From: Bryobacteraceae bacterium
Lineage (GTDB): Bacteria; Acidobacteriota; Terriglobia; Bryobacterales; Bryobacteraceae
Direction of reading: 5' to 3'
Assembly: GCA_035604115.1 (NCBI GenBank)
Contig: DATNJC010000230.1
Coordinates: 1,522 to 65,521 of the forward strand
Length of the DNA: 64,000 nt
Shown here: positions 2,770-45,112 of the stretch, in pieces
How positions within the stretch are numbered: position 1 is the stretch's first letter
Layout of the letters: each line of letters opens with the position of its first letter
Position numbers and translations under genes: made by a program
Notes under the pieces: generated by a model
The model's database searches: none
What the model saw: the letters and a program-made list of their open reading frames with translations, nothing else
What the model was told of the DNA's origin: nothing

Positions 2770-4140
2770 ATGCCTCAACAAACCGTCGACGTCTCGGAAA
2801 TCATCGAGCGTCAGAAGCTCAGCGGGTTCTTGATCGGCCTGGTGCTGGTCTCCTGGCTCATCACCTTCTTCGACGGCTTCGACACCAACCTGATCAGCTT
2901 CGCCTCGCCGTACCTCGCGACCGCGTATCACCTGAGCCGCATCGAGCTCGGCCACATTTTCGCGATGGGTCTAATGGGCACGCTCATCGGCGGATTCGTG
3001 TTCGGCTACATCGGCGACCGCATCGGCCGCCGCCCCGCCGTGATCCTGGCCACGGCCGCGTTCGGCGTGCTGACCATGTGCTTCGCCTTCGCCAACGGCT
3101 ACTGGCCCTTCTTCTTGCTGCGCCTGATCGCCGGCATTCCGCTCGGAGGCATGTTGCCGCTGGCGTGGTCGCTCAACATGGAGTACGTTCCCAAGCGCTA
3201 CCGCACCACCATCGTGACCATCATCATGATGGGCTTCTCGCTCGGCACCGGGTTCGCCGGGCCCATCGCGGTGTGGCTGATTCCGAAGCTGGGATGGCAG
3301 GCGGTGTTCGTGCTAGGCGGCGCGGTGGCGCTGGCCTGCGCGGGGATTCTGTTCTTCCTGCTGCCCGAATCGATTCGCTTCCTGGCGAGCAAGCAGCGCT
3401 CGCCCCAACGCATCGCCAGCGTGCTCGCGAAGATCGCGCCGGGTGAACAGTTCAGCGCCGGCGCGCAGTACATCGCCGGCGACGAACCGACCATCCGCAA
3501 GGACTTCAAACCCTCCATGCTGTTCCAAGGCGAGCTGCTCAAGATCACGCCGCTGATCTGGCTGGCCTACATCGCCAGCTCCTTCGCCGTCTACTTCCTG
3601 GTGAATTGGACCCCACTGGTCTTCGAAGCCCTGCAATTCACCCGCTCCGAGGCCGCCACCGCCGCATCGCTCACGTCCATCATGGGCGCGTTCGGAGGAC
3701 TCACCCTCATGCGCTTCACCGACCGCCATGGCGCCAACGCCATCACCATCATGCCGGTGATCACGATGGCGCTGTTGTTCACCGCGACCTTCGCCGGCCT
3801 CCCTCACAAGAGTTTTCAAGTGCTGAACGCGTGCATCGGCTTCTTCCTCATCGGAGGACACTTCGGAGTGCTCAGCGTGTGCGGCGTCTTTTACCCCAGC
3901 GCGTTTCGAGGCAACGGGACCGGATGGGCCAGCAGCATGTCCAAGATCGGCTCGGTCGCTGGACCGCTGGTCGGCGGCTACGTGCTCTCCACGCACTTGC
4001 CCGTGCGCTACGTGTTCGCGGTTTTGGCGATCTGCCCCGCCATCTTCGCGACGTGCATCTTTGCGGTGGGGCGGATTCATAGCCGCATGCTGGGGCGAGA
4101 GGCGCTGGTGGAACTAGAGGAAGCCAGACTTGCTTCGTAG
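2770..4140 (+). CDS. MFS transporter (aromatic-acid/sugar-acid:H+ symporter-like)
   Basis: 456 aa and about 12 hydrophobic segments. MFS loop motif 'GDRIGRRPAV'. Confidence 0.85.
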   Translation: MPQQTVDVSEIIERQKLSGFLIGLVLVSWLITFFDGFDTNLISFASPYLATAYHLSRIELGHIFAMGLMGTLIGGFVFGYIGDRIGRRPAVILATAAFGVLTMCFAFANGYWPFFLLRLIAGIPLGGMLPLAWSLNMEYVPKRYRTTIVTIIMMGFSLGTGFAGPIAVWLIPKLGWQAVFVLGGAVALACAGILFFLLPESIRFLASKQRSPQRIASVLAKIAPGEQFSAGAQYIAGDEPTIRKDFKPSMLFQGELLKITPLIWLAYIASSFAVYFLVNWTPLVFEALQFTRSEAATAASLTSIMGAFGGLTLMRFTDRHGANAITIMPVITMALLFTATFAGLPHKSFQVLNACIGFFLIGGHFGVLSVCGVFYPSAFRGNGTGWASSMSKIGSVAGPLVGGYVLSTHLPVRYVFAVLAICPAIFATCIFAVGRIHSRMLGREALVELEEARLAS

Positions 4141-5815
4141 CAACCGAGTCAACAATCCCATGCGGCGGGCGCAATGGCTGGCGCTCGGCCTCTCCGACGA
4201 GGACATGCAGAAGCCCAAGATCGCCGTCGTCAACTCCTCGTCCGAACTGGCGATCTGCTTCAGCCACCTCGATGGCATAGCCGCCGTGGTCAAGCAAGCC
4301 GTGCGCGAGGCCGGCGGCCTACCTTTCGAGATCCGCACCACCGCGCCCAGCGACTTCATCATCAATTCCGGACGCGGCGGCAACTACATTCTGCCCAGCC
4401 GCGACCTGCTCACCAACGACATCGAAGTCACGGTGGAAGGCGCGCAGCTCGACGGCATGATCTGCCTGGCCTCCTGCGACAAAACGCTGCCCGGGCAGGT
4501 GATGGCCGCGGCGCGCTTGAACATTCCCACCATCATCGTAATCTGCGGGTATCAGCAGAGCGGGGAAGTGCGCGGCGCGCATTGCGATATCGAGGACGTG
4601 TTCGTGGCCTCGGCCGCCGCCGCCATGGGACGCATTTCGCAAGACGAACTCCGCGAAATGAGCGCCAACGCGATCCGCAGTCCCGGCGTCTGTTCGGGTC
4701 TGGGCACGGCGAACACCATGCATTCGGTGTGCGAAGCGCTGGGCATGTGTCTGCCCGGCGCGGCTCCTGTGCGCGCGAACAGCGAGAAGATGTTCGACTA
4801 CGCCCGCCGCTCCGGCGCGCGCATCGTTGAAATGGTCAACGAAGACCTGCGCCCGCGCGCCATCCTGACGCCGGCCGCGTTCGCCAACGCCGTGTCGATG
4901 GTGCTGGCGATCAGCGGATCCATCAACGCCATCAAGCACCTTCAAGCCATCGCCATCGAAGGCCAGGTGGACGTGGACATCTACAAGCTCTTCGACGAGA
5001 TCGGCCGCCAGATCCCGGTGCTGTGCGCCATCCGCCCCAACGGCGACCATCCTATCGAAGCGTTCGAAGACGCCGGCGGCGCACGCGCCGTGATGAAGCG
5101 CCTCGAACCGCTTCTCCCGACCTGGGCGCTGACCGTAACCGGCCGCACGCTGGCGGAGAATCTGGCCGGCGTGACGGTCGCCGATCCCGAAGTCATCCGC
5201 CCGCTCGACAATCCGTATTCGCGCGAACCGGCCATCGTGCTGCTGCGCGGCTCGCTCGCGCCCGGATGCGGCGTCGTGAAGATCGGATTGCGCGGCGAAG
5301 GCCGTCCTACCCAATTCCGCGGTCCCGCGAAAGTGTTCGAGGACCGCGGGCCCGCCCTCGAAGCCATCCGCACGGGCCGCATTCAAGCCGGCGACGTCCT
5401 GGTGCTGCGCGGCGACGGAGTCAAAAGCGGGCCCGGCATGGGCGGCGCGGCCAACATGGCCGTGTTCGCGCTCGACGGCGTCGGTCTCGCGCTCAAGGTG
5501 GCGGTGGTTACCGACGGCCAGATGTCCGGGCTCGCCAACAAAGGGCTAGTCGTCGCCGAAATCGAACCGGAGGCTGGCGTGCCCGGCCCGCTCGCCGTCA
5601 TCCGCGACGGCGACATCGTGTCGATCGACTTGGCTCTACGCCGGATCGATTTGGAAGTCCCTGCGGCTGAGCTCACAGCGCGCATCCAGCAAACTCCGCC
5701 CTTGCAGAAACCCGACGGCCGCGGCTGGCTGTCGATCTACCGCCGCACGGCGCTATCGCTCGACCAAGGCGCGTCACTCGCCCCCGCACCCGCTCCAGTG
5801 AAAACGGTACTTTAG
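4130..5815 (+). CDS. IlvD/Edd family dehydratase (dihydroxy-acid or sugar-acid dehydratase)
   Basis: 561 aa. Family motifs 'KPKIAVVNS', 'LASCDKTLPG' and 'TDGQMSG'. TTG start at 4130; alternative ATG at 4160. Confidence 0.9.
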   Translation: MLRSNRVNNPMRRAQWLALGLSDEDMQKPKIAVVNSSSELAICFSHLDGIAAVVKQAVREAGGLPFEIRTTAPSDFIINSGRGGNYILPSRDLLTNDIEVTVEGAQLDGMICLASCDKTLPGQVMAAARLNIPTIIVICGYQQSGEVRGAHCDIEDVFVASAAAAMGRISQDELREMSANAIRSPGVCSGLGTANTMHSVCEALGMCLPGAAPVRANSEKMFDYARRSGARIVEMVNEDLRPRAILTPAAFANAVSMVLAISGSINAIKHLQAIAIEGQVDVDIYKLFDEIGRQIPVLCAIRPNGDHPIEAFEDAGGARAVMKRLEPLLPTWALTVTGRTLAENLAGVTVADPEVIRPLDNPYSREPAIVLLRGSLAPGCGVVKIGLRGEGRPTQFRGPAKVFEDRGPALEAIRTGRIQAGDVLVLRGDGVKSGPGMGGAANMAVFALDGVGLALKVAVVTDGQMSGLANKGLVVAEIEPEAGVPGPLAVIRDGDIVSIDLALRRIDLEVPAAELTARIQQTPPLQKPDGRGWLSIYRRTALSLDQGASLAPAPAPVKTVL

Positions 5816-5820
5816 AAACT

Positions 5821-6429
5821 GTGCCGGTCGACAAACTCCTGGGAGGCGTCTCCCGATTCCAAAAGCACATTTATCCCCAGCATCAGGACCTGTTTGAGAA
5901 ACTGGCGCTAGGCCAGCGGCCCGAAGCGTTGTTCATCACCTGCGCGGATTCCCGCATCGACCCTTGCCTGCTGACGCAAACCAAACCCGGCGAGCTGTTC
6001 ATCTGCCGCGTGATCGGCAACATCGTGCCACCGTACCCCGACGCGATCGGCGGCGTGTCGGCCACCATCGAATACGCGGTGGGCGTGCTGCGGGTGCCGG
6101 AGGTGATCGTTTGCGGCCACACCGATTGCGGCGTCATGCGCGGCGCGCTGAATCCCGAGCCGCTGGCGGCGTTCGCCAACGTGGCGGCTTGGCTGCGCTA
6201 TGCCAACGTGGAACACCGCGAGTCCGCGCCGAGCGCCGAAGCGCTGCTGGCGCTGACGGAACGGAATGTGGTCGCACAACTGGAGAACCTGCGCTCGCAC
6301 CCCGCAGTCGCGGCGCGGCTGGAAGCAGGCGATCTGGCGCTGCATGGGTGGGTCTATCACATCGGTCCGGGCACAGTGACGGTCTTTGAGGAGCAGACGC
6401 GGAAGTTCGAGACGCCGGCTTCCGGCTGA
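5821..6429 (+). CDS. Beta-class carbonic anhydrase
   Basis: 202 aa with GTG start. Zinc-ligand motifs 'CADSRIDP' and 'GHTDCG'. Confidence 0.9.
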   Translation: MPVDKLLGGVSRFQKHIYPQHQDLFEKLALGQRPEALFITCADSRIDPCLLTQTKPGELFICRVIGNIVPPYPDAIGGVSATIEYAVGVLRVPEVIVCGHTDCGVMRGALNPEPLAAFANVAAWLRYANVEHRESAPSAEALLALTERNVVAQLENLRSHPAVAARLEAGDLALHGWVYHIGPGTVTVFEEQTRKFETPASG

Positions 6430-6437
6430 TGTGGAAC

Positions 6438-7076
6438 TCAGGGTTTACTGTGAACGCCGCTCTTTGAACTCATGTTCGGTCCCCAGGCTCGAATGTCGGA
6501 CGAAAAACTGTTGGAGTCGCAGTCCGGGTGGACTTCGAAGCCTTGGGAGTCAAAATAGGTTCTTCCTCTGGTCACCTTGCCTTTGGCGCTCACTGTGAAG
6601 CACCAGTAGATCTCGGTTTGAAAACCGAACACCTTGACTTCGAAGGCATCGCTGATTGCGTCCAGTAGATTCTGGCCGCTGCCCGCGTCGCAGGCGTAAA
6701 GAGTAATGCTCCCGTCTTCGGTGAACCGGTCTTTCACGGCCTTGATCTTGCTTAAGTTGGCCTTGATGGTGTCCTCGAAGATCAGACTATCCTGGGCGAA
6801 GTGGATATTATCACCCACGATCCTTCCTGCGAGCGCGAAGACGGAGCGGTTGGCGTGGCCGATCAAGCCCAGCGCGGCGATCGACCCCGGCTTCTCTTTC
6901 CCGATGATCTCGACCACCTGCGCGAGGGTCAGCGCTTCGCCGGAGGACCCTCCGGACATCGCGGCCGTCGCCCGAAAATCGTCGATCGACGGAAACCATT
7001 GCTTGGCGTCGGAAGCTGCGAGTTCGTCTTTCGCGTTCCTGAACTGGTTGGGGTAGCCTTTGGCAAGGATCAGCAT
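6438..7076 (-). CDS. Hypothetical protein in a visibly lower-GC patch; DUF4347-like/caspase-like His...Cys pattern
   Basis: 212 aa. RBS gaggagacagaATG. 'LGLIGHAN' and 'ITLYACDAGSG' resemble the DUF4347/CHAT-type arrangement (recollection only, no search run). Confidence 0.6.
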   Translation of the reverse strand: MLILAKGYPNQFRNAKDELAASDAKQWFPSIDDFRATAAMSGGSSGEALTLAQVVEIIGKEKPGSIAALGLIGHANRSVFALAGRIVGDNIHFAQDSLIFEDTIKANLSKIKAVKDRFTEDGSITLYACDAGSGQNLLDAISDAFEVKVFGFQTEIYWCFTVSAKGKVTRGRTYFDSQGFEVHPDCDSNSFSSDIRAWGPNMSSKSGVHSKP

Positions 7077-7163
7077 TCTGTCTCCTCAGACGGGCTTCGC
7101 AATCCTGGCCGCCCCAATGGTTTGCGCGGAGGTTGCGGGAGAATTGGCGCCAAACCCGTCTGT

Positions 7164-7445
7164 TCATTGAAGTATACTTCGCCACGCCGAAGCCACGATT
7201 CCGGTTGAGTAAGGGATGTGCATCCATCCATTCGGGCCATATTCGATGCCGGTATCGGGCATGGTAACCTGAGGCGGCATGAACACAGCGCGCAAGGTCA
7301 GGCTGGAGGCGCTGCGGATTTTATCGAGAAGGCGCAACGAGCCATCGGCGCAGGCGCCGACTTCCAGTCCGCTCGTGCCGCCCTGAAGCTCGGTCCGGCG
7401 TCGCAGGCCTGCGCGCGGCTGCGCGAACTGCGGGGCAAGGTTCAC
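7164..7445 (-). CDS. Possible small hypothetical protein upstream of 6438-7076
   Basis: 93-aa ORF with GTG start and fairly high GC3. The overlapping + strand ORF 7218-7484 is about equally plausible, and no homology was recognised for either. Confidence 0.25.
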   Translation of the reverse strand: MNLAPQFAQPRAGLRRRTELQGGTSGLEVGACADGSLRLLDKIRSASSLTLRAVFMPPQVTMPDTGIEYGPNGWMHIPYSTGIVASAWRSILQ

Positions 7446-7555
7446 TTCGAGCGCGCGTTTGCGGAGCTTAAGGCCGACCGCTAGTCGCGGATGGTTTGCT
7501 AGTTTTCACCCCGGCCTCATTTCGCGCCGATATGATCATATAGGTCGGAGGATGC

Positions 7556-33039: not shown

Positions 33040-33347
33040 TCATTGCTGAGCCCGCTGGCTCAGAAACGCCGGGATGTCGCGTGAGCCCTGGGTCACGGCC
33101 ACGATCTCAATGGACTGACGAGACGCACGATAGATGATCAAATACGCCCCGACCGGCCAGAACGGACCGGATGAGGCGTGAAGTCTTCGCGCTTGCGGCC
33201 CATCCCCGGAGTCTGCCCGAGGGCCTCAAACGCGTCGTACAGCGTTCCGATCCAGCGATCGGCGGCCTCGACGTCGTCTGCGGCGATGTATTCCCAAATC
33301 CCGTCGAGGTCGCGATCTGCATCGCCACTAAGGACGTACCCGCTCAC
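33040..33347 (-). pseudogene. parE: ParE/RelE-family toxin with a 1-nt frameshift
   Basis: GTG 33347 reads 'SGYVLSGDADRDLDGIWEYIAADDVEAADRW...REDFTPHPVR'. The conserved C-terminus 'FWPVGAYLIIYRASRQSIEIVAVTQGSRDIPAFL' continues in another frame, with the shift near 33161-33162, down to the stop at 33040. Confidence 0.75.
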
Positions 33348-33610
33348 GCGCGAGTCTTGCGGCGTTCGGCAGACTTGCGCTGTAATCGGGCGCGGGCGGC
33401 AGCCGGGTCGACGGTTTCGCCGCGATCGAGGGCGGCGAGGCGGCGGCCGAGCTCCTGGTTGAATTCCGCCAGTTGCGCCGCGCGCGCGGAGTCGTGCTCC
33501 TCCAGCAATCGCAACGCTTCCCGAACGACCTCGCTCGCCGAGTTATAACGACCCGATTGCACCTTAGCGCTGACGAGTTTTTCCAGTTCCGGCGTTAGAG
33601 AGACGTTCAT
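33344..33610 (-). CDS. parD: ParD/CopG-type (TIGR02606-like) antitoxin
   Basis: 88 aa. 'MNVSLTPELEKLVSAKVQSGRYNSASEVVREALRLLEE'. GTGA overlap with parE. Confidence 0.85.
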   Translation of the reverse strand: MNVSLTPELEKLVSAKVQSGRYNSASEVVREALRLLEEHDSARAAQLAEFNQELGRRLAALDRGETVDPAAARARLQRKSAERRKTRA

Positions 33611-35524: not shown

Positions 35525-36384
35525 GCCGGCCCTCCGCTTCCCGGCGGTGTGTCCTGCCGGCGGTTCTCGCGCGTCGCCCACGCCAGCCGCACATACAGCA
35601 TGTAAACGCCCAGCGCGATCAGCAGCACCGGCCAATACCGCAAGATCCGCCGGATTTCAAGGAAGCCCAGATTGCTTAGCAGAAACACCACGCCCAACGC
35701 GATCAGGATCACGGGAGCGGCGGGAATATTGGTGCCGCCGTGGACCGGCAACACGCTGGAGAATTCATCCACCGGCTGCCCCAGCCTCCGCCGTTTGGCG
35801 GTGTGAAACGCTTCGAAGGCCATGTAGGCCCAAAACGCGGCCAGCATCAGGCTCAGCAGAGGCTCCAGGCCCTCGGCCGCGTTGTTGCTCAGAACCGAGA
35901 TCAGCAAGCCCACGATCACCACATGCACCAGGCCCTTGCCGTACTGCCCGTTGTAGACCGCGCCCACACCCGGAATCAGCCCCAGCAGGAACGCCAACCC
36001 GGGCGACACGTCGCGATTCGGCAAGGGCGGCGGCGCGGTGCTCGTATAGGGCGAGGCATATGGCGAATCGGCAAACCCCGCACCGGTTGCGGTGAACCCG
36101 CTTCCCGTCGCACCAGCACCGGCCGTGCCCGCTCCGGCCGCGCCCCCGGCCGCTCCCCCAGACGCTCCCATGGGAGGCGGCGCATGCTCGGCGCAAAAAA
36201 TGGTTCCATGTGCCGCGCGAACGCTCGCGGCGTCCAGGGCTTTGCCGCACGCGCGGCAATAGCCGACGGTCACGCCTGGCGCCGAGCTCGAGCCCGGACT
36301 TTGCTCCGGACTTCGCTCCGGACTTCGCTCCGGACCTTGCTCCCGGCCCTGCTCGGGGCTTTGTCCCGGCTGCTGCGGATTCAT
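35521..36384 (-). CDS. Zinc-ribbon membrane protein with a low-complexity linker and the same C-terminal TM hairpin
   Basis: 'YCRACGKALDAASVRAAHGTIFCAEH', several TM segments, and C-terminal 'RYWPVLLIALGVYMLY'. ATGA overlap with the anti-sigma gene. Confidence 0.7.
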   Translation of the reverse strand: MNPQQPGQSPEQGREQGPERSPERSPEQSPGSSSAPGVTVGYCRACGKALDAASVRAAHGTIFCAEHAPPPMGASGGAAGGAAGAGTAGAGATGSGFTATGAGFADSPYASPYTSTAPPPLPNRDVSPGLAFLLGLIPGVGAVYNGQYGKGLVHVVIVGLLISVLSNNAAEGLEPLLSLMLAAFWAYMAFEAFHTAKRRRLGQPVDEFSSVLPVHGGTNIPAAPVILIALGVVFLLSNLGFLEIRRILRYWPVLLIALGVYMLYVRLAWATRENRRQDTPPGSGGPA

Positions 36385-39457: not shown

Positions 39458-39512
39458 CCGAGTATGCCAAACGGCGGCTTGGTACGCCCAGAACATCCGC
39501 TGAAATAGAGAC

Positions 39513-39541
39513 TTAACTAATTGAAAGAACCCTGTTATACT
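39513..39541 (+). promoter_or_regulatory. Candidate sigma-70-type promoter upstream of rpoD
   Basis: TTAACT, a 17-nt spacer, then TATACT. Pattern match by eye only. A 9-bp stem (39577-39585 / 39621-29629) follows in the leader. Confidence 0.25.
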
Positions 39542-39704
39542 GGGCACAGCACGGTGGAGGCTGTGTGTCGGCGGTAGGTTCTGTCTAAAGTATTGTAATA
39601 ACACGTCTGAATGAAAAGCCGACAGAACCCGGAGGGAAGATCGGGCGAAGGAGTGTATCAGGTGAAGACCTGATGCCCGGTTCCCGGCTGGGAGGTGAAT
39701 CTAC

Positions 39705-41237
39705 GTGGATCATTTCGAGGACCAGTTCTTAGGCGAGGGTCACGAGCCTCTTGGGCTTCCTTTTGACGAGGAAGGCGCTTTTTTCCATCCTGAGGAAGTT
39801 CACGATGGAGAAGAATTCGCGCACGCCCACCCGGTTGAAGAGTCCATCTACACCGATGATCCGGTACGCGTGTATCTGCGCGAGATGGGCGCCGTTCCGC
39901 TGCTCACGCGCGAAGGCGAAGTCAATCTCGCCCGCCGCATGGAGCGCGGAAAACTTCGCATGCAGAAGGCCATCAGCCGCAGCGCGCTAGTGCAGTTGCA
40001 GGCTGTAGAAATTGCCGAACAGATCCGCCGGGGGATGGAAGAGCTGGACGCCTTCGCCGATCTGGGCGATCTGGAAGCCGAAAGCGCCGCTTACAACAAG
40101 CGCCGCGGCGAAGTCGAACAGGACTTCGCCGGAATCGTCGGCGCCCACAAGAAGCTCGGCCAGTCCACCGAGAAGTTCTCGACCGTCGCGCTCAGCAATA
40201 AGAAGCTTCGCCGCAGATGGGCGGGCCGGATGAGCCGCCATCGCGTGGAAGTCTCCCAGGCCATCCGCAAGATCCCGTTCTACAACTCGCAGTGGAAGCA
40301 GTTTGCCAAGGAAATCGAGCGCGTGGTGGACGAGCTCACCTTGCTGGAGCAGGACCTGCGCAAGCTGGAGAGCCGCAACGGCCAGACCGCGCAGGCCAAA
40401 GCCAAGGAGCTGCGCCGCGAGATCCGCAAGCGCGAGCACGCCGCCGGCGCCAGCGTGACCGACCTGCGCCACACCATCGCCGTCATCCGCCACGGCGAAA
40501 TCGAAGCCGAGCGCGCCAAGAAAGATCTGGTCGAGGCCAACCTCCGCCTCGTGGTTTCGGTCGCCAAGAAATACGTCAACCGCGGCCTGCATTTGCTGGA
40601 CCTGATCCAGGAAGGCAACATCGGCCTGATGCGCGCCGCCGACAAGTTCGAATACCGCCGCGGCTACAAGTTCTCCACTTACGCCACCTGGTGGATTCGC
40701 CAAGCCATCACGCGCGCCATCGCCGACCAGTCCCGAACCATCCGCATCCCCGTTCACATGAACGAAAGCATGAACAAGTTCCTGCGGGCCACGCGCGAGC
40801 TGGAAAAGGAACTCGGCCGCGCGCCCACCAACGACGAAATCTCGCGCCGCATGGACATTCCGGTCGAGAAGGTGCAGAAGCTCAAGACCATCTCGCGCGA
40901 TCCGGTGTCGCTCGAAACGCCAGTGGGCCGCGACGGCGAATCCGCGCTGGGCGATTTGATCGAGGACCGCTGGGTGGGCTCGCCGGTCGACGCGGTGATC
41001 GACACCAACGTCCGCGACGAGACCGCCAATATCCTGAAAACTCTCTCGCCGAAAGAAGAGAAGGTGATCCGCCTGCGCTTCGGCATCGGCTGCGAGCGCG
41101 AGCACACGCTCGAGGAAATCGGCCAGGAGTTCGACGTCACCCGCGAACGCATCCGCCAGATCGAAGCCAAGGCTCTGCGCCAGTTGCGGTCCCCCGAGCG
41201 CGCCCGGCATCTGCGCGCGCTGCTCGCCGCGCGGTAA
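39705..41237 (+). CDS. rpoD: Primary RNA polymerase sigma factor RpoD
   Basis: 510 aa. RBS gggagg plus GTG start. '[24 protein letters not shown]' and '[54 protein letters not shown]'. Confidence 0.97.
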
Positions 41238-41282
41238 GCTGGCGCCTCTATGCAGGCCCTTGCTTTCTGGAAGGAAGTAACC

Positions 41283-41771
41283 ATGGATCAGGCCAATTTT
41301 CTCGAGGGCCTGATCGGTCTGCTGGACGAGAATCACATCCGGTATTGCGTGATCGGCGGACAGGGCGTAAACGCTTACGCCGATCCGCTAGTCAGCCTCG
41401 ACCTTGACCTGGCGGTAGCTGTCGATCAACTGCCTGTTGTCGAGCGGCTGCTGAGCGACCGGTTCCGCATCGAGCATTTTCCGCACAGCCTGAACGTTTC
41501 GACCGAGGATTCGCAACTTCGGGTTCAGATTCAAACCGATCCGCGCTATTTCCCATTTCCCGAGCGCGCCTCGGTGCGAGAAGTGCTTGGTCTTCGAGTG
41601 CCTGTCGCTGCGCTCGAGGACGTGCTGATCGGCAAGATCTGGGCGGCACAAGACCCCGAGCGCCGGGCCAGCAAGCGGCGCAAGGACTTGCTCGACATCG
41701 AGCGCCTCATTGAAGCGCATCCCGCACTGCGGACGCGGGTTCCCGCGGAAATCCTGGCGAAGTTTTCGTAA
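41283..41771 (+). CDS. Minimal nucleotidyltransferase-fold protein (MNT/DUF6036-like)
   Basis: 'YCVIGGQGVNAYADPLVSLDLDLAV' fits the NTase pattern G-x-A...D-x-D. 162 aa. Located inside the insertion bracketed by the rpoD 3' repeats. Confidence 0.6.
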   Translation: MDQANFLEGLIGLLDENHIRYCVIGGQGVNAYADPLVSLDLDLAVAVDQLPVVERLLSDRFRIEHFPHSLNVSTEDSQLRVQIQTDPRYFPFPERASVREVLGLRVPVAALEDVLIGKIWAAQDPERRASKRRKDLLDIERLIEAHPALRTRVPAEILAKFS

Positions 41772-41882
41772 CTTTCGCCTGGGTGCGCATTGCTTTGCAA
41801 CTTCTGAATCCTCTTGTCGCGCAATTCGTCTTACATAATGCTTGTTTGTAGTCCAAAAGACAGTAGATTAAGAGGAGCCTTT

Positions 41883-42752
41883 GTGCAGATCATTGACTCT
41901 TCGGCAGCTGCGTTGACGAGGCGGCGGAGAAGTCGAAATCTAGTTGGTGGCGATCGGGAATTGCAGGTATCCTCGACAACCGATTTGCTTTTTGGAGTGA
42001 TCTCGCTGATGGTCGTTCTTTCGGCTGGTCTGGTATTGAGCCTGCTGTTCCTCTGGCGAAGCTCACCAGTTCAGACATTCGACTTTCTCGTCGCTTATCT
42101 TCCGCTCACACTGCCCATATTAACGGTCGGTCTCACTGTAATCCTCCGCCCGCACGAGCTTGTTGACCTTCATGGATGGCTGCGTCTATCGACCACTTTC
42201 AGTCTTGGCCTTGTAAGCTTCGCAATCTGGGCGTTTGTCGCGGGCCAATCGGTGAGCCAATATATCGTGATCAATTCCACAAAGGTGTACAACAAGGATC
42301 ACGCTATGTTCCTTCTTCTGGTGGCGTTCATCTGGGCGACCTCTGGTTCCCTCGTTACTGCGCTCGCCGAGAGTGCGGAGAAGAAGCGCCGTTGGAAGGT
42401 CATACAGGCAATTCAGTTTGCCTTCTCGCTTGCCGCTTGCTTCGTTCTGCCGTTCTTGCTGCTGGAGGACAAGGCCGCGGTCGAGAAGAGTACCGGGCAG
42501 TCTTTCGACACTCGCCAATTCATCGTCAACATCCCCTACCGGAATGCGTCCCTGAACCAGCATCTTGGCCGCTCGACAGATCCCATTACCGAGTGTTTTG
42601 TGGCTCGGCATGTTTCAGCGAAGAGTCGGGCACAAGCCATCCGGAGGGCAAACGAGCTCATGAGCCAGGAGGATCTCGCATTCAGCAAGGGGCGCGGGTC
42701 GTCCGCCATCGAGGTACTGGAGAGTCAGATTGTGGAGCAAGAGGAGCCGTAG
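41883..42752 (+). CDS. Lower-GC five-TM membrane protein with a ~90-aa soluble C-terminus (no family recognised)
   Basis: RBS agaggag 7 nt before GTG 41883 (the ORF track starts at TTG 41814). Five hydrophobic segments. The stop codon lies 1 nt before the duplicated rpoD fragment. Confidence 0.6.
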
Positions 42753-42753
42753 C

Positions 42754-43063
42754 GCCGCGACGGCGAATCCGCGCTCGGCGATTTGATCGAGGACCGCTGG
42801 GTGGCTCGCCCGTCGACGCGGTGATCGATACCAACGTCCGCGACGAAACTGCAAATATCCTGAAAACTCTCTCGCCGAAAGAAGAGAAGGTGATCCGCCT
42901 GCGCTTCGGCATTGGCTGCGAGCGCGAGCACACGCTCGAGGAAATCGGCCAGGAGTTCGACGTCACGCGCGAACGCATCCGCCAGATCGAAGCCAAGGCC
43001 CTGCGCCAGTTGCGGTCCCCCGAGCGCGCCCGGCATCTGCGCGCGCTGCTCGCGGCGCGGTAG
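42754..43063 (+). pseudogene. rpoD: Detached duplicate of the rpoD 3' end (last ~103 codons) with a 1-nt deletion
   Basis: Aligns base for base with 40927-41237, with 11 substitutions and one deleted G. Encodes '...[85 protein letters not shown]'. Confidence 0.92.
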
Positions 43064-43120
43064 CCCTGGGCACGGCGTTAAGACTTGTAATACGGCTCCG
43101 TAATACGCTAGGCTGGATTC

Positions 43121-43381
43121 GTGGCGTCACCCATAACATTACGTCTGGACCCGGAAATCCGCCGGAAGGTCGCCCAGATCGCCCGCCGCAAGGGTACGAC
43201 CACGTCCAAGGTGTTGCGCGAAGCGATCACCACGTGGGTCGACCGCGAGGAAAGCGCGCTATCGGCCTACGAGCAGATTAAGGACCTGATCGGGAGTGTT
43301 CACGGAGGCGACCCGCACCGCTCGACGGACATGGGCAAGAAATTCACGCAATTACTTAAAGCCCGCCGGAATCAATCGTGA
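43121..43381 (+). CDS. Ribbon-helix-helix (CopG-like) antitoxin
   Basis: 'ITLRLDPEIRRKVAQIARRKGTTTSKVLREAI'. Its stop overlaps the vapC GTG. Confidence 0.8.
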   Translation: MASPITLRLDPEIRRKVAQIARRKGTTTSKVLREAITTWVDREESALSAYEQIKDLIGSVHGGDPHRSTDMGKKFTQLLKARRNQS

Positions 43382-43782
43382 TCCTGGTGGACGCCGGTCC
43401 CTTAGCTGCAATCGCCGACACGCATGACCAGCATCATGCAGCTTGCGTGGCCGCTCTTGAAACGATTCGGGAGCCAATGGGCACGGTGTGGCCCGCGCTA
43501 AGCGAAGTCATGTACCTGCTAGCGGACCTGCCAAGAGCTCAAAACTCAGTCTGGGACATCCTAGCAAGGGGCACTGTCCGACTTCTCCCGCTCGGCCCCG
43601 GCGACATACCCAGAATGCGCGAGCTGATGGAGCAGTATTCCAACCGCCCCATGGACCTCGCCGACGCCGCCTTGATCTGCGTGGCCGAGCGGGAAGGCAT
43701 CCGCCGGATCTTCACGGTCGATCGCGAGGATTTCTCGGTCTACCGGCTTCATGGTCGGATTCGTCCATCGATTTTGCCGTAG
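43378..43782 (+). CDS. vapC: PIN-domain toxin VapC (apparently intact)
   Basis: 'MILVDAGPL', 'DLADAALICVAER' and 'IFTVDREDF' retain the acidic PIN residues. Confidence 0.8.
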   Translation: MILVDAGPLAAIADTHDQHHAACVAALETIREPMGTVWPALSEVMYLLADLPRAQNSVWDILARGTVRLLPLGPGDIPRMRELMEQYSNRPMDLADAALICVAEREGIRRIFTVDREDFSVYRLHGRIRPSILP

Positions 43783-44671: not shown

Positions 44672-45112
44672 CTAAGCCGCATCCCGCACCGATATGCTGA
44701 TCTCCTTGCCCAGCGCATGGAACGCAGCCTCGATCTGATCGAACCCGGAATGGTGGCTCAAGTTAAACAGCCGGTCCACGCTGGTCTTGGGGAGCGCCAG
44801 CCGCCGCCCCAATTCAGCCTTCCGAATGCCCGATGCTAGGAACTCCCGGTACAGCTCCGCCTTCGCCGCTTGCAGCGCCGGCAGTCGAACCATGCGGAAT
44901 TTCCGCCCGCGAGGCTTGCTCGGCCACGGCAAATCCTCGCCATGACGCATGTGCTCCTGAACCAAAGTTTGGAGCAGAGCGACGGCCATCTCGCGAGCCT
45001 CTTCCTCGGTATCACCCTGAGAAACGCCCCAGCCGAAGTCGGGGATGGTGATCACAAATCCGCCGTCTTCGACGGCCTCGAAGCGAGCGGGATATTCCAT
45101 AGGGGTCTTCAC
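44672..45112 (-). CDS. hicB: HicB-family antitoxin with a C-terminal HTH
   Basis: 'YPARFEAVEDGGFVITIPDFGWGVSQGDTEEEAREMAVALLQ' followed by an HTH-like tail. GTG start overlaps the hicA stop (GTGA). Confidence 0.85.
   Translation of the reverse strand: MKTPMEYPARFEAVEDGGFVITIPDFGWGVSQGDTEEEAREMAVALLQTLVQEHMRHGEDLPWPSKPRGRKFRMVRLPALQAAKAELYREFLASGIRKAELGRRLALPKTSVDRLFNLSHHSGFDQIEAAFHALGKEISISVRDAA

Follow-up and report, generated by a model that had tools for sequence, protein, structure and literature searches.

A displaced duplicate of the rpoD 3′ end in a Bryobacteraceae genome, probably the scar of recombination between related lineages

In this study we describe a direct duplication of the 3′ end of rpoD, the gene of the primary sigma-70 factor, in an uncultured Bryobacteraceae bacterium (Acidobacteriota) from soil and peat metagenomes. 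The window, that is, the whole stretch of DNA analysed, comprises 64,000 nucleotides (GenBank assembly GCA_035604115.1, contig DATNJC010000230.1, positions 1,522 to 65,521), and all coordinates count from its first letter unless another contig is named. An intact rpoD is followed by two small genes and then by a second, displaced copy of its own end, and the two copies differ at silent sites only, a single lost base apart. The sequence behind each copy matches a different gene arrangement found after rpoD in related lineages. We consider the locus to be, probably, the scar of a recombination between related lineages that took place through rpoD homology and was closed by one illegitimate joint.

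The two copies and their silent differences

The features on which the comparison is based are the following.

39705-41237, plus strand: rpoD, primary sigma-70 factor, 510 amino acids, intact, with Pfam regions 1.2, 2, 3 and 4
40927-41237, plus strand: copy A, the functional rpoD end (last 103 codons and TAA; regions 3.2-4.2), 311 nt
42754-43063, plus strand: copy B, a displaced rpoD 3′ fragment and pseudogene (psi-rpoD′) that ends in TAG, 310 nt

A first-pass annotation, made from the letters of the sequence, had described copy B as a base-for-base duplicate with 11 substitutions and one lost G, and pairwise realignment together with a codon tally returned the same counts (96.5% identity, 11 substitutions and a 1-bp deletion). 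The deletion reduces GGG (40975-40977) in A to GG (42802-42803) in B and shifts the frame of B; apart from this frameshift, the two copies encode identical amino acids. The alignment also recovered the limits that had been reported, the stop codon on the right and 40927/42754 on the left. Beyond the left limit, at 40926/42753, the similarity is lost, and 15 of the 26 preceding bases differ between the copies.

All 11 substitutions fall on the third codon position and all are silent, as had been claimed, and the recount found no non-synonymous change. In the coordinates of A they lie at 40949, 40985, 41003, 41021, 41024, 41027, 41087, 41141, 41174, 41228 and 41237, and from A to B the codon changes are ctg>ctc, ccg>ccc, gac>gat, gag>gaa, acc>act, gcc>gca, atc>att, acc>acg, gct>gcc, gcc>gcg and taa>tag. 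By Nei-Gojobori counting, the 102 sense codons contain 78 synonymous and 228 non-synonymous sites, and the differences within them are 10 synonymous and 0 non-synonymous (synonymous divergence, dS = 0.14). The probability of a silent-only pattern is P = 1.2e-6 under neutral drift of both copies and P = 1.2e-4 if one copy was constrained and the other drifted neutrally, which bears out the argument that neutral decay would not have spared the first and second positions. On these counts, we reject a copy that arose in situ and decayed neutrally as the origin of B. Judged by its codons, copy B would have been part of a working rpoD until recently and would have gained only the frameshift since then.

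Across the family, identity over the rpoD 3′ end amounts to 86-92%. Among the 8 nearest rpoD genes, 24-29 codons have changed, and none of these changes alters an amino acid of the last 103 residues. Because these residues are invariant in the 8 nearest relatives, two functional alleles can differ only silently, and we believe that A and B differ at silent sites alone because both belonged to working rpoD genes until the event. The proposal that the copies diverged as functional rpoD genes in different lineages therefore gains support, since none of the 10 sense changes alters the protein, as among those 8 relatives. The further proposal that one copy is foreign to this chromosome is supported by the silent-only divergence between closely related lineages. 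Comparison with the rpoD genes of relatives had also been suggested as a means of finding the native copy. A and B proved to be closer to each other (96.5%) than to any other lineage in the databases searched, the next lineage being 92% identical to A and 90% to B, and neither copy stood out as native.

The changes unique to each copy indicate that both lineages accumulated silent changes. When 30 outgroups were used, three changes were unique to B (41024, 41027 and 41087) and at least one was unique to A (41174, perhaps also 40985); 3-5 changes were clearly derived in B and 1-3 in A, and the remainder were homoplastic or polymorphic. A count of 9 of the 11 changes as derived in B, obtained with 3 outgroups, was not upheld with 30 and was dropped.

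The duplication had been flagged as a possible assembly artefact, and it is real. Both copies and the insert occur at 99.97-100% identity in three JGI assemblies from different samples (L089, 3300030659; L090, 3300001356; L091, 3300000567), and a fourth (L092, 3300027625) has copy A together with a portion of the insert. Logan contigs of other runs (L085-L088) read continuously from copy A or the insert into B, across the joint and the 1-bp deletion. Breaks in the Logan contigs are confined to stretches where A and B have more than 31 identical bases in common, because a k-mer assembler must break there. There are 13 public contigs that encode the nucleotidyltransferase of the insert. The sequenced carriers are all close to clonal.

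Gene arrangements after rpoD and the proposed recombination

The origin of the two copies can be read from what follows them. What had been described as an insertion of about 1.5 kb measures 1516 bp between the copies and holds two genes. The features between and behind the copies are the following.

41250-41771, plus strand: small nucleotidyltransferase gene, MenT1/AbiEii-like fold, 173 amino acids, 12 nt past the rpoD stop (Pfam AbiEii, E = 2.9e-7)
41883-42752, plus strand: membrane-protein gene of a rare family, 289 amino acids, its TAG stop one base before copy B
Between 42753 and 42754, no strand: putative illegitimate (non-homologous) joint, where rpoD-derived sequence starts abruptly one base past the TAG of the membrane-protein gene; crossed by Logan contigs L085-L088
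43064-43120, plus strand: spacer of the type found between rpoD and an RHH-PIN pair, 57 nt, with two GTAATAC repeats (43087, 43100), homologous to the spacers of L164, L116, L122 and L155
43121-43782, plus strand: RHH antitoxin gene (43121-43381) and PIN toxin gene (43378-43782), a VapBC-like pair (Pfam RHH_1 and PIN)

Upstream of rpoD, the order of genes for an extracytoplasmic function (ECF) sigma factor, an anti-sigma factor, a LiaF-like protein, an LPG synthase and NrdR is kept in relatives; downstream, the gene content is different in every relative. In the arrangement that we call type I, rpoD is followed at 10-13 nt by the nucleotidyltransferase gene, with a homologous flank. It is found in at least six other Bryobacteraceae lineages (L189, L195-197, L163, L137, L140 and the contig of P0134), at 70-90% amino-acid identity. 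In type II, the RHH-PIN pair follows rpoD directly across a homologous spacer in at least four lineages (L164, L116, L122 and L155), whose pairs have 63-78% amino-acid identity to that of the window. In L134 and L176, the RHH-PIN pair is also present, separated from rpoD by other inserted genes. The former has 1.8 kb between rpoD and the pair, with TonB C-terminal-like and VWA-like open reading frames (ORFs) (reverse-complemented, 327-2119), and the latter 0.65 kb with two small ORFs (reverse-complemented, 193-843). Neither insertion contains a detectable rpoD remnant. These differing insertions without a remnant indicate that the junction between rpoD and the RHH gene is a variable spot.

Directly 3′ of copy A, the sequence shows homology to type I junctions. 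The spacer directly 3′ of copy B has its homologues in the type II spacers, which start right behind the rpoD stop. Therefore, the window is a type I/type II hybrid with its joint inside rpoD. By this homology, copy B with its flank once marked where a full-length type II rpoD ended.

We infer that the DNA of a closely related lineage (dS about 0.14) recombined with the chromosome, and that the rpoD 3′ end would have been the only homology that the two shared. This could have happened by two routes. In the first, a linear fragment would have undergone homology-facilitated illegitimate recombination, and the second would be a single-crossover (Campbell-type) integration of a circularised molecule that consisted of the 310 nt of the rpoD 3′ end, the transferase gene and the membrane-protein gene. 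The product of either route would be an intact hybrid rpoD ending in A, the cargo, the displaced old end B and the older neighbours; after the event, B would have been a pseudogene that picked up one frameshift. The 310-nt homology contains uninterrupted identical runs of 59, 53 and 53 nt, which are ample for RecA-dependent exchange, and the type I and type II loci that would be the parental arrangements were both found in related genomes. We weakly favour a type II recipient that gained A, the transferase gene and the membrane-protein gene, since the only synteny common to relatives is that of rpoD and the genes upstream of it, and since new cargo in this model always lies beside the functional gene. 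The reverse direction is a less likely possibility. At a dS of 0.14, the two parents stood close to each other, and they may have shared synteny downstream too.

Illegitimate recombination facilitated by homology has been demonstrated experimentally in transformable bacteria (de Vries & Wackernagel 2002; Prudhomme et al. 2002; Meier & Wackernagel 2003; all as cited in PMC5361080) and in Escherichia coli conjugation (PMC3240628). The window resembles those cases in that a single stretch of homology would serve as the anchor and that a dedicated recombinase is lacking; the other joint would be non-homologous, and foreign genes of a related donor would have been trapped beside a conserved gene. 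It differs in that the event is deduced from a natural footprint and that a 310-bp anchor was duplicated in place of the more usual deletion. The same mechanism has been proposed for the displaced 3′ ends and orphan genes of type VI secretion system (T6SS), Rhs and contact-dependent growth inhibition (CDI) loci (PMC5361080). There, too, a module arrives together with a copy of the conserved upstream part, pushing the old 3′ part and the downstream genes away, and such events can stack, as suggested here by the order rpoD, transferase, 75-nt remnant and membrane-protein gene in L189. However, the displaced 3′ ends of Rhs, CDI and T6SS arrays encode different toxins and thereby diversify function, and alternative functional C-terminal domains with cognate immunity genes are not what the rpoD locus contains. 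Since the two rpoD ends do not differ in the amino acids that they specify, the duplication of the rpoD end is a neutral by-product.

Several points weigh against the recombination that we propose. Neither parental lineage was found in the databases searched, so that the direction and the assumption of a single event rest on parsimony, and these databases yielded no full-length rpoD with the B-type alleles. A degenerate pattern search of metagenome contigs found no empty site, that is, a full-length rpoD followed by this RHH gene at the right distance, and among 90 Bryobacteraceae rpoD 3′ ends recovered by a core pattern no donor allele exceeded 92% identity to A or 90% to B. The similarity stops abruptly between 42753 and 42754, where microhomology cannot be scored without parental sequences. 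In experimental homology-facilitated illegitimate recombination, duplication is less usual than deletion. Moreover, the joint is tidier than a random illegitimate end predicts: it lies 1 nt past the stop of the cargo in the window (42750-42754) and 2 nt past it in L049, an alphaproteobacterial locus described below (7372-7377), and in both the reading frame of the cargo runs on into that of rpoD in the remnant. Finally, with near-clonal carriers the evolution of B since the event cannot be followed.

Remnants in other lineages and rival explanations

Shorter displaced rpoD ends were found at three other loci, and they bear on the explanations that compete with recombination through rpoD. Coordinates are those of the respective contigs.

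L189 (Bryobacteraceae), 983-1057: remnant of 75 nt, 92% identical to the rpoD end of the same contig, in the order rpoD, transferase, remnant, membrane-protein gene, unrelated genes
L195-197 (Bryobacteraceae, three assemblies), L195 about 3291-3316: remnant of 26 nt, a perfect copy of the rpoD terminus (TGCGGGCGCTGCTGGCCGCGCGCTAA), 8 nt past the transferase stop
L049 (Hyphomicrobiaceae metagenome-assembled genome, JBGANK010000054.1), 4834-7464: dnaG, rpoD, a 91-amino-acid ORF and a remnant of 88 nt, 89% identical

The remnant of L189 (ENA ERZ27251359, k141_1534124) has five clear differences from its rpoD, all silent: CAT/CAC, GCT/GCC, CTT/CTC, AGA/CGA (a first-position change) and TAG/TAA. 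A Logan contig (L190) starts inside this remnant and reads into the membrane-protein gene. The 26-nt repeat of L195-197 scores 52, compared with a shuffle maximum of 29. In L049, about 550 nt past rpoD hold the 91-amino-acid ORF (7099-7374), the remnant begins 2 nt past the ORF stop, and some of its differences are replacements; by its layout, this alphaproteobacterial locus would be the same type of scar in another phylum. No remnant was detectable directly after the transferase gene in L163, L137, L140 or the window. The lengths of the remnants, their left boundaries and the cargo vary from case to case.

These cases invite a broader proposal, which we put forward tentatively and regard as rather unlikely. 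According to this proposal, the rpoD 3′ end would be a recurrent landing pad that needs no recombinase, and accessory genes (the MenT-like transferase, toxin-antitoxin pairs and the membrane protein) would travel with it as a portable homology arm, even across phyla. Their landing site would be constitutively transcribed, and graded remnants of 310, 88, 75 and 26 nt would be left behind. In an exotic variant, the 80-amino-acid ORF of copy B would be expressed as a decoy.

The first-pass annotation interpreted the locus as the footprint of an element that integrates into the 3′ end of a gene, and hence as a decayed or non-autonomous island. In this alternative, which we now consider improbable, a site-specific integrative element of the e14/phage 21-icd type entered the rpoD 3′ end with a replacement end, and its integrase has been lost or acted in trans. 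In E. coli, e14 and phage 21 integrate into the 3′ end of icd and leave the icdC pseudogene (Hill et al. 1989, as summarised in PMC13626634), and the footprint of e14 in icd is the same as that observed here, with an intact gene, the element, a displaced 3′ pseudogene and mainly silent differences (PMC13626634). In both, incoming DNA supplies the intact 3′ end of a housekeeping gene, the old end becomes the downstream pseudogene, and the direct repeats allow excision that yields a chimeric gene. Direct repeats of the gene 3′ end (A and B) do flank the insert of the window and end at the stop codon, the cargo is of lower G+C, and the membrane-protein homologue of L187 lies near an IS21 IstB gene and an integrase gene. 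However, e14 is a 15-kb prophage with an integrase and a defined attachment core, whereas the interval in the window is only 1.5 kb, filled by the two cargo genes, with no recombinase and with repeat lengths that vary among the loci. The absence of an integrase, already stated in the first-pass annotation, holds for all 64 kb: no recombinase or transposase Pfam family was found in the insert, in its gene neighbourhood of 10 kb, or among the ORFs of at least 150 amino acids across the window. The two cargo proteins had no match in a plasmid search.

The element would also lack constant boundaries. The transferase gene is a stable neighbour of rpoD, which it follows on its own in six other lineages. 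The comparison of repeats covered five of these, all but that of the P0134 contig: L189 has one of 75 nt, L195-197 one of 26 nt, and in L163, L137 and L140 none was detectable. Repeat lengths (310, 75, 26 and 88 nt) and cargo differ between the cases, and such variation is not what a fixed attachment site gives. The footprint interpretation lacks support on these grounds, namely that there is no recombinase, that the first gene of the insert is a common rpoD neighbour and that the repeats are variable. The island fared no better, because the insert is not a discrete unit and copy B with its flank makes a genuine junction between rpoD and the RHH-PIN pair.

A second alternative, in our judgement also improbable, assumes that the duplication arose in situ with identical copies and that one copy was later replaced by homologous recombination with a related allele, in a burst of silent differences. 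This sequence of events predicts the silent-only pattern equally well. The perfect 26-nt repeat of L195-197 fits either an in-situ copy or a recent conversion, and the long identical runs of rpoD 3′ sequence across lineages favour allelic exchange. Two events would be needed, however, and how 310 bp of target came to be duplicated upon insertion would be left unexplained; the flanks of A and B match different natural arrangements, which a single inter-lineage event explains directly. In addition, identity binned along rpoD gave no mosaic pattern relative to the neighbouring genes, a comparison of poor resolution given that the nearest relative is only 84-92% identical.

It is also conceivable, although we consider it very improbable, that copy B has been kept by selection. 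It contains an ORF whose product might be sigma region 4 on its own, acting for instance as a decoy for anti-sigma or phage factors, and such a role would account for the restriction of the changes to silent ones.

42821-43063, plus strand: ORF of 80 amino acids inside copy B, GTG start, sigma region 4 alone; called with Pfam Sigma70_r4 in L089-L091, and matching the NCBIfam RpoD C-terminus

The ORF is intact 3′ of the frameshift and is called by gene finders from its GTG start, and 9 of the 11 changes, including all those clearly derived in B, lie inside it. Because a promoter and terminator scan found no terminator-like site between rpoD and copy B, read-through transcription is possible; the counts of the scan equalled shuffle expectation. 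Against selection on the ORF, the two changes upstream of it (42776 and 42811) are also silent in the rpoD frame, and the 75-nt remnant of L189, far too short for a domain, is equally silent-only. There is no obvious Shine-Dalgarno sequence upstream of the ORF, and the near clonality of the carriers leaves post-event selection unmeasurable.

Lastly, the data are metagenomic and an odd in-frame 63-nt tandem duplication in the rpoD of L175 could be such a product, but a chimeric contig assembled from two co-occurring strains is excluded for practical purposes by the same structure in four JGI assemblies from different samples and by the independent Logan contigs, which lead contiguously out of A, through the insert and into B and contain both the unique joint and the 1-bp deletion.

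Cargo, neighbouring genes and significance

The rpoD gene itself starts with GTG, and its product matches P0001 at 100% and, in the nearest other lineage, P0002 at 96%. A long non-coding leader (39458-39704) precedes it, and the only promoter-like site of the region lies at 39513-39541. The 63-nt duplication of L175 (WNFI01022717.1, about 4560-4724) lies in rpoD region 4.2, with units that differ at silent sites only; it could be real or an artefact of strain mixing during assembly. Further upstream, the LiaF-like gene (minus strand) contains about five tandem repeats of a 12-nt unit, CCGGACTTCGCT (36294-36353).

The nucleotidyltransferase probably starts at the ATG at 41250, giving 173 amino acids, whereas gene callers begin at 41283 and give 162. 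Its family has 3491 homologues, mostly of 173-176 amino acids, with the conserved N-terminus MQALAFWK. The active-site pattern (of the G-x-x-G ... S-x-D-x-D type) is present, G36, G39, S49 and D51 being invariant and D53 near-invariant. The AbiEii matches in Pfam and in PADLOC are both weak. The AlphaFold model has a predicted local distance difference test (pLDDT) score of 83, and its best folds in the PDB are MenT1, LnuA and ANT(2'')-Ia, at template modelling (TM) scores of 0.5-0.6. There is no cognate antitoxin gene (AbiEi or MenA) beside it, the upstream neighbour being rpoD and the downstream genes varying among lineages.

The membrane protein has no Pfam, NCBIfam or PADLOC family match and 13 homologues only, and a PDB sequence search with either cargo protein returned nothing significant. 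The G+C content of its gene is 0.55, compared with 0.62 for the window. The homologue in L189 has the same relative position and the same C-terminus, and that in L187 adjoins the IS21 IstB gene, 3.7 kb from the integrase gene. We rejected the view that the two cargo genes form one conserved cassette: they are split by the 75-nt rpoD remnant in L189, and the membrane-protein gene is missing from most type I lineages.

Behind copy B, the two GTAATAC repeats (43087-43106), 13 nt apart, stand 5′ of the RHH gene and are kept in the spacers between rpoD and the RHH gene of L164, L116, L122 and L155; they resemble an operator, probably that of the RHH antitoxin. The RHH-PIN pair is followed by DUF4159, HicB and housekeeping genes. 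Modules of toxin-antitoxin type around rpoD comprise ParD/ParE upstream (about 33138-33610), the RHH-PIN pair and a HicB-like gene (44672-45100), in addition to the MenT1-like transferase.

We consider the window to be a fresh and well-documented case of a known kind of recombination scar, and the point that it adds is the recurrence of the rpoD 3′ end as an anchor for small accessory genes. The scar is open to misannotation as a small sigma-like gene, as gene callers already report an 80-amino-acid Sigma70_r4 protein in copy B. Silent-only divergence between a gene and a nearby fragment of it is a signature of recombination between lineages and not of an integrase. With an essential, conserved gene as the homology anchor, accessory neighbours of toxin-antitoxin-like and defence-like kinds can move between related genomes without the machinery of mobile elements. 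If the recurrence in four lineages holds in complete genomes, the remnants of rpoD ends could help to establish when, and in which order, genes were gained at this hotspot.

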